Positions 1,888 to 3,294 of a DNA stretch of 8,563 bases are shown one piece after another (the first letter of the stretch is position 1; the number at the start of each line of letters is the position of its first letter). This DNA comes from a virus (taxonomy: Duplodnaviria; Heunggongvirae; Uroviricota; Caudoviricetes). Position numbers and translations under genes: made by a program. The notes below the pieces were generated by a model that saw only the letters and a program-made list of their open reading frames with translations, did no database searches and was not told the origin of the DNA. The DNA lies in the IMG/VR virus record IMGVR_UViG_2529293043_000020. One strand, written 5' to 3'.

Positions 1888-2085
1888 ATGCTGAAACAGC
1901 AGGATATGACAGAAACCGCCAGAGTGGTGTTTAATGAATTAAGCGTTACCGACCCGGCGACAGTCGGGGAGATTGCGCAGAATACTTACCTTTCACGCGA
2001 ACGCTGCCAGTTAATACTGACCCAGCTGGTTATGGCGGGTCTGGCAGACTATCAGTTTGGTTGTTACAGACGCCTTCAGTCCTGA
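1888..2085 (+). CDS. Small (65 aa) protein, possible winged-helix regulator (PapI/FaeA-like pattern, unverified)
   Basis: ATG 1888 preceded by GGAAAAGGGAAAAAG. Sequence MLKQQDMTETARVVFNELSVTDPATVGEIAQNTYLSRERCQLILTQLVMAGLADYQFGCYRRLQS has a helix-turn-helix-like core (TVGEIAQNTYLSRERCQLILTQLVMAGL). A terminator overlaps the stop codon. Confidence 0.45.
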   Translation: MLKQQDMTETARVVFNELSVTDPATVGEIAQNTYLSRERCQLILTQLVMAGLADYQFGCYRRLQS

Positions 2086-2095
2086 AGGCTTTTTT
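2072..2095 (+). terminator. Intrinsic terminator overlapping the stop of the small ORF
   Basis: GCCTTCA-gtcc-TGAAGGC hairpin (7-8 bp) followed by TTTTTT at 2090-2095. Confidence 0.55.
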
Positions 2096-2112
2096 ATTTG
2101 TGGTAAATGGGC

Positions 2113-2143
2113 GGCTGGTGGGTGTAAGGGGCACCCACCAGCC
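2113..2143. repeat. Perfect 12-bp inverted repeat (GGCTGGTGGGTG / CACCCACCAGCC) with a 7-nt spacer
   Basis: Read directly from the sequence; no T-tract follows, so it is not a canonical intrinsic terminator. Lies between the upstream terminator and the methyltransferase start. Confidence 0.6.
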
Positions 2144-2235
2144 ATCTGCTCATGCGTTGGGTTCACAAGCAAACCTCAGGCCCACTGCTTTGCGCAAAAG
2201 CAGAATGAGCCTATCAGAGACAGGCTTAATGATCC

Positions 2236-3294
2236 ATGCTTAATACTGTAAAAATATCCAGTTGTGAGTTAATCAACGCCGACTGCCTGGAATTTATGCG
2301 GTCGTTACCCGAAAATTCTGTTGACCTGATAGTCACGGACCCGCCGTACTTCAAAGTGAAACCCGAGGGCTGGGATAACCAGTGGGCGGGTGATGAAGAT
2401 TACCTGAAGTGGCTGGACCAGTGTCTTGCGCAGTTCTGGCGGGTGCTGAAACCTGCCGGAAGTCTTTACCTGTTCTGTGGCCATCGTCTGGCATCTGACA
2501 CCGAAATCATGATGCGTGAGCGGTTTAACGTGCTGAACCATATCATCTGGGCAAAGCCGTCCGGACGCTGGAACGGGTGCAACAAGGAAAGCCTGCGGGC
2601 GTATTTCCCCGCCACAGAGCGCATTCTGTTCGCAGAGCATTATCAGGGGCCGTATCGTCCGAAAGATGCCGGGTATGAGGCGAAGGGTAGGACACTGAAA
2701 CAGCATGTGATGGCCCCGCTGATTGCTTACTTTCGTGATGCGCGCGCTGTCCTGGGGATAACGGCAAAACAGATTGCAGATGCCACAGGAAAGAAAAACA
2801 TGGTGTCGCACTGGTTCAGTGCCGGTCAGTGGCAGCTGCCGAACGAAAGCGATTATCTGAAATTACAGGCACTGTTTGCCCGGGTGGCAGAAGAGAAGCA
2901 TCAGCGGGGTGAACTGGAAAAGCCCCACCACCAGCTGGTGGATACGTATGCCTCTCTGAACCGACAGTATGCGGAGCTGCAGAGTGAATATAAGCATCTG
3001 CGGCGGTATTTCGGTGTGACGGTGCAGGTGCCGTACACCGATGTGTGGACGTATAAACCGGTGCAGTACTATCCAGGGAAACATCCGTGCGAAAAACCGG
3101 CAGAAATGTTGCAGCAGATAATCAGCGCAAGCAGTCGTCCGGGAGACCTGGTTGCAGATTTCTTCATGGGGTCGGGGTCGACAGTGAAAGCAGCGATGGC
3201 GCTGGGACGTCGTGCAACTGGCGTTGAACTGGAGACTGAACGTTTTGAGCAGACGGTGCGGGAAGTACAGGATTTAATCATTCGTAACGGATGA
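2236..3294 (+). CDS. Orphan DNA methyltransferase, beta-class N6-adenine type (N6_N4_Mtase-like)
   Basis: 352 aa. Motif IV DPPY at codons 35-38 (nt 2338-2349) near the N-terminus and AdoMet motif I FFMGSGST near the C-terminus give the IV-before-I order of beta-class amino-methyltransferases. No adjacent restriction endonuclease ORF. Confidence 0.85.
   Translation: MLNTVKISSCELINADCLEFMRSLPENSVDLIVTDPPYFKVKPEGWDNQWAGDEDYLKWLDQCLAQFWRVLKPAGSLYLFCGHRLASDTEIMMRERFNVLNHIIWAKPSGRWNGCNKESLRAYFPATERILFAEHYQGPYRPKDAGYEAKGRTLKQHVMAPLIAYFRDARAVLGITAKQIADATGKKNMVSHWFSAGQWQLPNESDYLKLQALFARVAEEKHQRGELEKPHHQLVDTYASLNRQYAELQSEYKHLRRYFGVTVQVPYTDVWTYKPVQYYPGKHPCEKPAEMLQQIISASSRPGDLVADFFMGSGSTVKAAMALGRRATGVELETERFEQTVREVQDLIIRNG

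Follow-up and report, generated by a model that had tools for sequence, protein, structure and literature searches.

What ties a small winged-helix gene to an adenine methyltransferase gene in a phage, and what is the sequence between them? The question is raised by an 8,563-nucleotide (nt) stretch of a tailed phage (Caudoviricetes; IMG/VR record IMGVR_UViG_2529293043_000020), called here the window, in which an open reading frame (ORF) of 65 amino acids (aa) is followed, after a spacer of 150 nt, by the gene of an orphan N6-adenine methyltransferase. As judged from sequence, the two genes form a real and widely conserved prophage cassette, and the spacer is a conserved structured RNA leader, a candidate cis-regulatory RNA by its structure, strand and fixed position. 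The reading we prefer, to which we give a probability of roughly 60%, is that of an anti-restriction methylase of the late operon, which would be restrained by upstream terminators and by a leader that occludes its translation start, with the small protein as an accessory and most likely a regulator. The three parts of the cassette are:

1888-2085, plus strand: small winged-helix gene, 65 aa, phrog_331
2097-2241, plus strand: conserved structured RNA leader, about 145 nt (covariance model R1, 127.4 bits, E = 9e-29)
2236-3294, plus strand: orphan beta-class N6-adenine methyltransferase gene, 352 aa

A structured RNA leader between the two genes

Is the spacer folded as RNA? R1 matches only once in the window, at the position given above, and its five helices lie just before the methylase gene:

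2107-2111/2149-2153: helix S1 (AUGGG/CUCAU)
2113-2124/2132-2143: hairpin HpA, with a 7-nt loop
2160-2170/2224-2235: long-range helix S2 (GGUCA-AAGC with GCUU-UGAUC)
2179-2181/2209-2211: helix S3
2185-2191/2197-2203: hairpin HpC
2236-2238: start codon of the methylase

The helices were defined by hand, the covariance model was built from them and the sequences were realigned. This structure replaced the incomplete one that came from raw MAFFT alignment and RNAalifold, where the hairpins were shifted in register. HpA had been called a perfect 12-bp palindrome in a preliminary description of this DNA, made from the sequence alone. The inverted repeat is indeed perfect, with arms of 12 nt, but the 7 nt between the arms make it a hairpin and not a contiguous palindrome.

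The stem of HpA is GGCUGGUGGGUG/CACCCACCAGCC in Escherichia and GACUGUAAAAGUG/CACCUUUACAGUC or GACAGUGAGGAUG/CAUCCCCGCUGUC in Proteus/Providencia. In a model-fitted alignment of 94 sequences, 90.6% of the cells are paired against 30-45% with the partners slid, and in a plain MAFFT alignment of 29 sequences the proportion is 87.2% against 30-45%, percentages that are inflated by the derivation of the structure from the same sequences and by the fitting of the larger alignment to it. Two-sided changes are found at 28 pairs in the larger alignment (12-15 when slid) and at 13 pairs in the smaller one (3-9 when slid). RNAalifold on an independent MAFFT alignment gives GC-to-AU exchanges in S2 and S3, and S2 exists in three compensatory versions, AAGC/GCUU, GGAC/GUUC and GGGC/GCCC. 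There are also many G-U pairs, which are compatible with the plus strand only; the sense strand is therefore the strand predicted to fold. When single copies from the window, Salmonella and Proteus are folded to minimum free energy, the same architecture is obtained (z = -3.6, -2.9 and -3.5, respectively), and the 3' strand of S2 reaches or enters the AUG in all three. No Shine-Dalgarno sequence is present at normal spacing upstream of the methylase; the closest AGG is 11 nt from the AUG, inside S2.

Could the inverted repeat with its flanks instead be a C-box-like DNA operator to which the winged-helix protein binds? A perfect repeat with 12-bp arms, lying between a putative regulator gene and the gene to be regulated, speaks for such a site. 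However, the stem varies freely and still stays complementary, the frequent G-U pairs are strand-specific, and the hairpin is retained in phages that have no such protein. Moreover, the near-identical winged-helix proteins of two loci (L031 and L039) adjoin different stems. The stem sequence is thus independent of the type of winged-helix protein, which counts against the repeat as an operator, and we regard this explanation as very improbable.

The leader matches no Rfam 15 family. Nothing reaches the gathering score in 2086-2235; with a permissive E-value P26 comes nearest, with 24.3 bits where the cutoff is 36 bits, and it lies on the opposite strand.

Some details of the leader may be noted here. 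The segments UGGGCG (2108-2113) and GCCCA (2180-2184) are complementary to each other and are the most invariant across all leader types; they possibly form a pseudoknot or an alternative to S1 and S3. The lone matching double change in UGGGC/GCCCA is seen in Mixta, GAGC with GCUC. A local hairpin CUCAUG/CACAAGC in place of S1 and S2 was considered and dropped; its strands are, by eye, at most partly complementary in Escherichia-type copies. The sole GATC in 1600-3300 lies at 2231-2234, inside S2 and 2 nt before the ATG of the methylase. The sequence UGAUC is near-invariant in Escherichia/Proteus-type leaders and absent from N15- and phiKO2-type leaders. At one IMG/VR locus (L073 2136-2275), the last ~30 nt of a window-type leader, the 3' strand of S2, are swapped for unrelated sequence before the ATG. 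This leader scores 89 bits against about 127, and it may be a natural variant without start-codon occlusion.

Distribution of the cassette

How widely is the leader found, and in what company? R1 finds it in at least about 95 loci of IMG/VR, which were first retrieved from viral contigs by a loose sequence pattern. It also matches in phages N15, YDC107_1, phiKO2, PY54, Vibrio VHML, Serratia OS31 and Escherichia Eeyore, with scores of 41.7-150 bits. The leader thus occurs across Enterobacterales and in a Vibrio phage (VHML), ahead of the same methylase family. Among the IMG/VR loci anchored on the leader, the methylase is immediately 3' in all 83 that could be assessed, and the small ORF or a relative resembling gp51 of N15 and phiKO2 is 5' in 72 of 81. 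The nine exceptions, six of which were inspected, include a pseudogenised ORF, a deletion remnant and loci without the ORF. Leader and methylase stand without the small ORF in Eeyore and OS31, both isolated phages, and at two further loci, L106 and L166, in the latter of which the leader directly follows the terminator after the antiterminator gene Q. An Aeromonas P2-like phage has a 51% identical methylase and no leader.

The same association is seen from the side of the small ORF. With the small protein as query and one genome per species, 36 loci were obtained, spanning Escherichia to Proteus, Providencia and Plesiomonas, and the leader is present in every one of them. The methylase starts 338-356 nt past the start of the ORF in 32; of the other four, one is cut off by the contig edge, one retains the methylase in fragments, and in two the methylase is gone while the spacer element persists. 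Spacer length was compared in 34 copies (the window itself, two phage loci and 31 species loci): it is 142-154 nt in 32 copies, and 134 nt and 285 nt in the others, the last being a pseudogene case. In the phage collection, the methylase is just downstream in all 57 small-ORF records that could be paired with a listed methylase match, and the pairing holds down to 48% identity for the small ORF and 62% for the methylase. Among 5426 complete E. coli genomes, 2012-2340 (about 40%) carry the cassette, with up to 9 copies per genome. The pair had been proposed to be a module rather than two unrelated genes, and the counts of 32/36 and 72/81 bear this out.

Which parts make up the core of the cassette? 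Leader and methylase persist where the small ORF is absent, so the winged-helix gene appears to be a frequent and conserved but dispensable companion, and the core unit, as far as the loci compared indicate, is terminator, leader and methylase. Decay is seen on both sides. In L123 and L036 the small ORF is broken by in-frame stops, and in L052 by a 5' deletion. The frame of the methylase ends after 45 aa in L030, and its gene is lost in L024 and L042, where small ORF and leader are kept.

Terminators around the small ORF

Three elements flank the small ORF on the plus strand:

1743-1764, plus strand: terminator-like hairpin GCCACC-GGAA-GGTGGT with T7 run (tR'-like), between Q and the small ORF, read from the sequence
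1826-1866, plus strand: conserved motif TTGCTG, 17 nt, TATTGG, then GTGTGTCACG, 5' of the small ORF
2072-2095, plus strand: terminator-like hairpin GCCTTCAG-TC-CTGAAGGC with T-run, which overlaps the small-ORF stop codon, from a terminator scan

A hairpin with T-run equivalent to the first is found at the same place in most of 26 aligned loci, with varying hairpin sequences. For the last, the scan placed the hairpin at 2072-2089, followed by TTTTTTATTT, and the region gave 7 sites against 2.7 +/- 1.7 in shuffled sequences. A terminator between small ORF and methylase, already noticed in the preliminary description, is therefore present as hairpin and T-run; Escherichia-type loci preserve it through compensatory changes, and Proteus/Providencia-type loci lack it. 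The motif at 1826-1866 is common to Escherichia, Salmonella, Proteus and Plesiomonas loci, and phage Eeyore, which has no small ORF, retains a related stretch. As a promoter it was rejected, since its -10 element is poor and a sigma-70 scan made no call at 1826-1866. Its role could be that of a weak promoter, of an RNA element or of a site for protein binding.

Does this arrangement mean that the small ORF is an independent gene, a moron for a transcription factor or another winged-helix protein of use to phage or lysogen, with its own weak promoter and terminator, which merely shares an insertion hot-spot with the methylase? The terminator-like hairpins on both sides and the conserved upstream motif with its -35-like TTGCTG would fit such a gene. 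The region 3' of PR' is a known site of moron insertion (PMC4104026), and loss of the ORF leaves leader and methylase intact. However, the leader follows the ORF at a fixed distance in 36/36 species loci, and the ORF stands at no other position among the phage records listed. Linkage maintained in Escherichia, Proteus, Providencia, Plesiomonas and probably N15-type phages is not expected of an unrelated moron, and the candidate promoter has the weaknesses just given. We therefore hold an independent moron to be distinctly unlikely.

The methyltransferase belongs to the M.EcoGI/GII family

What does the enzyme itself do? Its protein matches PF01555 (N6_N4_Mtase) over residues 29-340 (E = 2.4e-43, 149 bits), with DPPY at aa 35-38 and FMGSG at aa 310-314. 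This is the motif order of the beta class, in agreement with PMC5778455, and it upholds the earlier assignment as a beta-class DPPY N6-adenine methyltransferase. Compared with the M.EcoGII gene, 309 of 337 readable codons are identical (about 92%), where only unambiguous codons are counted, the sequence being that of a plasmid printed with machine-reading errors in the supplement of PMC11551740. Dropped letters in that print mislead plain tblastn, and a frameshift-tolerant alignment was used. The 349-aa homologue of E. coli O104:H4 shares 327 identical residues with the methylase, and its locus has the same 65-aa ORF on the 5' side with a 150-nt spacer. The enzyme of phage 1720a-02, a phage reported to encode a very similar relative of M.EcoGII (PMC5778455), has 94.3% protein identity by tblastn. 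By these three identities the 2236-3294 product is, at the level of sequence, a member of the M.EcoGI/GII family and not a GATC-type methylase.

M.EcoGII methylates adenine in any context, in DNA and in RNA. It is prophage-encoded in E. coli O104:H4 and silent in the lysogen, and its constitutive expression is harmful to the cell. Its authors propose that it is switched on at the time of induction and protects progeny DNA (all PMC5778455). The anti-restriction role suggested in the preliminary description agrees with that proposal. So does the gene content with the view of the enzyme as having no restriction partner, for no nuclease gene lies between Q and the transfer RNA (tRNA) genes.

The small protein is a generic winged helix

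What is the small protein, then? It is the product of a real gene, with a median pairwise ratio of nonsynonymous to synonymous substitution rates (dN/dS) of 0.09. It matches PHROG 331, a phage family of unknown function, at E = 1.9e-37, and the divergent allele of a Shiga toxin 2c (Stx2c) phage does so at 8.6e-25. AlphaFold2 predicts a canonical winged helix for the 65-aa protein (mean predicted local distance difference test score, pLDDT, 92.3), with the layout H1, strand, H2, H3 and a beta-hairpin wing. On this model the fold is a generic winged helix. Among its best Foldseek matches are winged-helix domains that serve dimerisation at the N-terminus of S-adenosylmethionine (SAM)-dependent methyltransferases. 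At E <= 0.001, a search of 1.8 billion proteins yields 62 representatives of this narrow family, whose named members come from Enterobacterales throughout. The N-terminus MLKQxDMTE and the helix 3 sequence CQLILTQL are near-invariant, while the middle of the protein occurs in very different allelic types. Most members are acidic; the isoelectric point (pI) of the protein here is 5.1.

The small ORF had been described as having a PapI/FaeA-like helix-turn-helix (HTH) pattern. The winged-helix part of this description stands, by AlphaFold2 and Foldseek, and the PapI/FaeA part does not. Pfam gives only generic winged-helix matches below threshold (TrmB, DprA_WH, MarR_2 and HTH_24), of which TrmB (PF01978) reaches 17.4 bits against a gathering threshold of 25.6 (E = 0.0042), and membership in PapI/FaeA, TrmB or MarR was rejected on this ground. 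FaeA/PapI gives no Pfam match at E <= 1, PapI is not among the PDB-sequence profile matches at E <= 10, and no structural closeness to PapI was found beyond the general winged-helix fold. The best NCBIfam match has E = 0.14, and no direct homologue was found in PDB. In public records the ORF is labelled 'TrmB family transcriptional regulator' or 'hypothetical protein'; the sub-threshold TrmB match is the likely source of the former label.

What remains of the epigenetic switch first proposed, in which a PapI/FaeA-like protein would act with Lrp at Dam-type GATC sites beside a site-specific methylase? PapI too has a winged-helix fold, and a conserved GATC stands 2 nt ahead of the ATG of the methylase. 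Against this, there is no family or structure match to FaeA/PapI, that GATC is the single one in 1600-3300, it falls in the RNA helix S2 and is missing from N15-/phiKO2-type leaders, the methylase family is sequence-non-specific, and the setting is a phage late operon and not a fimbrial operon. The PapI/Lrp/Dam-GATC pairing is thus hardly credible.

Could the small protein be part of the enzyme instead? It might be a second methyltransferase subunit that redirects or restricts the choice of substrate, as PNB-2 does for M.EcoPA8orf6770P. In that Stx-phage system the methylase and a small winged-HTH protein encoded just 5' of it are purified together in a 1:1 ratio, and the small protein targets the enzyme to 16S rRNA (PMC10810198), a precedent that makes the subunit model a serious rival. 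The tight, nearly universal adjacency at fixed spacing agrees with it, as do the Foldseek matches to methyltransferase dimerisation domains and the acidity of most members, which is unusual for a DNA-binding repressor. If the model were true, the 'non-specific' activity of M.EcoGII would partly reflect its expression without the natural partner. On the other side, similarity to PNB-2 is not detectable (BLASTP E = 0.19, on which a PNB-2 homologue was rejected), and the enzymes differ, DPPY/PF01555 against DPPW/MT-A70. Alleles of the two genes are shuffled: the methylases of phiP27 and the Stx2c phage are both about 86% identical to the one here, whereas their small proteins are 98% and 48% identical to the 65-aa protein. 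In N15 and phiKO2, gp51 lies 5' of the annotated late promoter, in a separate transcription unit, the ORF is absent from isolated phages, and M.EcoGII alone is fully active (PMC5778455). We consider a subunit role rather unlikely, and prefer the small protein as a regulator: most likely it acts on the leader or the methylase, and not as an operator-binding repressor at the hairpin.

Position in the late operon

Where does the cassette lie in the phage genome? Over its full length the window shares 99.9% identity with a lambdoid E. coli O157:H7 prophage, whose RefSeq annotation, together with the ORF listing and Pfam scans, gave the gene order. The other features are:

403-735: DUF968/NinG-like gene
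748-1107: RusA gene
1104-1646, plus strand: Q-type antiterminator gene (PF06576 DUF1133, E = 1.1e-110; PF06530 Phage_antitermQ)
3335-3410 and 3491-3567, plus strand: two tRNA genes, with CAT anticodon and Arg-TCT, respectively (ARAGORN, Rfam)
after the small RNAs named below: SASA/DUF6645 esterase gene, then holin, lysozyme and more late genes

The PF06530 score at 1104-1646 is 35.1 bits, over the Pfam cutoff of 26 bits, and Q alleles differ among other carriers of the cassette. The PR' cognate to Q should lie within 1647-1742. From position alone, we infer that small ORF and methylase belong to the Q-dependent late transcript. The site of the cassette, 3' of PR', is the one at which the toxin genes of Stx phages are found. 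The tRNA pair 3' of the cassette is arranged as in Stx phages, and in phiP27 the small ORF and methylase pair is followed by ileZ, argO and stx2e. ARAGORN calls the tRNA at 3335-3410 tRNA-Met (CAT), while RefSeq and the phiP27 record annotate the equivalent as tRNA-Ile (ileZ type); its CAT anticodon would be read as Ile after modification. Rfam further gives STnc100 at 3677-3885 on the plus strand (175 bits) and the anti-GcvB small RNA AgvB at 3887-3946 on the minus strand (56.6 bits, only just at gathering score). The two small RNAs are convergent and lie at the moron site 3' of PR', an arrangement reported for prophages of enterohaemorrhagic E. coli (PMC4104026). In several O157:H7 genomes IS1203 disrupts an antirepressor-like gene 3' of the lysis genes (L004 13147-15029); at about 7513-7870 the window has the form without this interruption.

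Proposed mechanism

How might these parts work together? The best explanation of the data is a three-part cassette that comes first in the Q-dependent late operon of many temperate Enterobacterales phages. In the lysogen, transcripts from PR' would halt at the terminators of 1743-1764 and 2072-2095 unless Q is present, and the methylase would be silent. After induction, polymerase modified by Q would read through. S2 would then occlude positions -1 to -12, with the weak Shine-Dalgarno-like bases, and the AUG, so that translation would be low or conditional. The enzyme would hypermethylate progeny DNA and so protect it broadly when the next host attempts restriction. As a dispensable trans-acting accessory, the winged-helix protein would modulate the leader or the methylase. 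This scheme builds on the family of the enzyme, the conservation of the three parts, the covarying RNA structure and its predicted pairing with the start-codon region.

Several points weigh against it, in addition to the inflated pairing percentages given above. The segments UGGGCG, GCCCA and GAGCCUAUCA are the most conserved and are invariant, so that covariation is blind to their role in pairing or binding. S2 is clear in Escherichia/Proteus-type leaders only, and the centre of phiKO2/N15-type leaders has a local hairpin instead; start-codon occlusion may thus not be universal. About 10% of carriers lack the small ORF or have it in decayed form, and the cassette does not require it. Finally, the roles of the terminators, S2 and the winged-helix protein at this locus are ones that we infer.

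A bolder reading may be put forward tentatively. The leader might be a new cis-regulatory RNA class that gates a promiscuous DNA/RNA adenine methylase, with the winged-helix protein as its trans-acting effector. Such an effector would bind the leader, bind the enzyme to set its timing or focus, or read N6-methyladenine, which some prokaryotic winged-helix domains do (PMC11037411).

Why does the cassette matter? The gene pair is common and already annotated, with an enzyme of a well-known family. What the literature searched did not contain is the organisation in three parts and, most of all, the conserved leader: there was no earlier description of the leader or of the gene pairing, and the leader, not previously catalogued, is a clear candidate for a new family of RNA. 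Chromatin and RNA mapping use M.EcoGII as a standard reagent, and its relatives are often present several times per E. coli genome, beside Shiga toxin genes. What is published on its natural control goes no further than 'not expressed in the lysogen'. If the effector reading were true, the reagent would have an unstudied natural partner and a natural off-switch. Leader and winged-helix partner give handles on how phages deploy a methylase that is reported to be harmful when constitutive, and they bear on whether non-specificity is all there is to its activity in vivo. A third question that they open to test is whether late-phase hypermethylation has an effect on the evasion of restriction and possibly on the biology of toxin phages.

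Comparison with known systems

Is there any known system of this kind? The nearest is M.EcoGI/M.EcoGII itself, of the same family, with DPPY followed by FxGxG, in a lambdoid prophage 3' of Q. The methylase here has 352 aa against 349 aa and differs by a few dozen substitutions, and this allele is known from sequence; the M.EcoGI/GII publication (PMC5778455) is silent on the upstream winged-helix ORF and on the leader. M.EcoPA8orf6770P with PNB-2 likewise joins a phage adenine methylase to a small winged-HTH protein, whose gene lies immediately 5' (PMC10810198). It differs in being an MT-A70 enzyme of 208 aa with DPPW, and PNB-2 has 143 aa, with E = 0.19 to the small ORF. The two genes overlap, which leaves no structured spacer, and are found close to the beginning of the phage record, a long way from the Q/late region.

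Two other systems are similar in logic. C proteins of restriction-modification systems have Xre-type HTH folds, bind C-box operators and control nucleases. They resemble the present case in that a small protein with a DNA-binding fold is encoded just 5' of the gene of a potentially toxic enzyme, which suggests control of timing; here, however, the fold is a winged helix, a nuclease is absent and the behaviour of the repeat is that of RNA. The N leader of phage lambda, which has an RNase III site, is a structured 5' leader that occludes a translation start. It shares with our leader a cis RNA structure that spans the initiation region of a dose-sensitive phage gene, whereas the leader here is built of five helices, with long single-stranded segments that are invariant, and stays with one gene family across distant phages. 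Lambdoid structured leaders have no sequence or Rfam relation to it.

Relatives of the cassette are also found in N15 and phiKO2, where gp51 is placed as follows:

L006 (phiKO2), 2003-2230: gp51
L007 (N15), 2006-2233: gp51

These phages differ from the window in that gp51 lies 5' of an annotated late promoter and terminator, and in the centre of the leader. N15 gp52 is annotated from an internal start, and the similarity begins 234 nt earlier. The likeness extends to all three parts: gp52 is a methylase 56-61% identical to the one here, the leader is of the same family (41.7-59.7 bits), and gp51, a winged helix of 75 aa, aligns over its full length to the small-ORF profile (hhalign probability 87%, E = 4e-6) and is probably a remote homologue of the small ORF.

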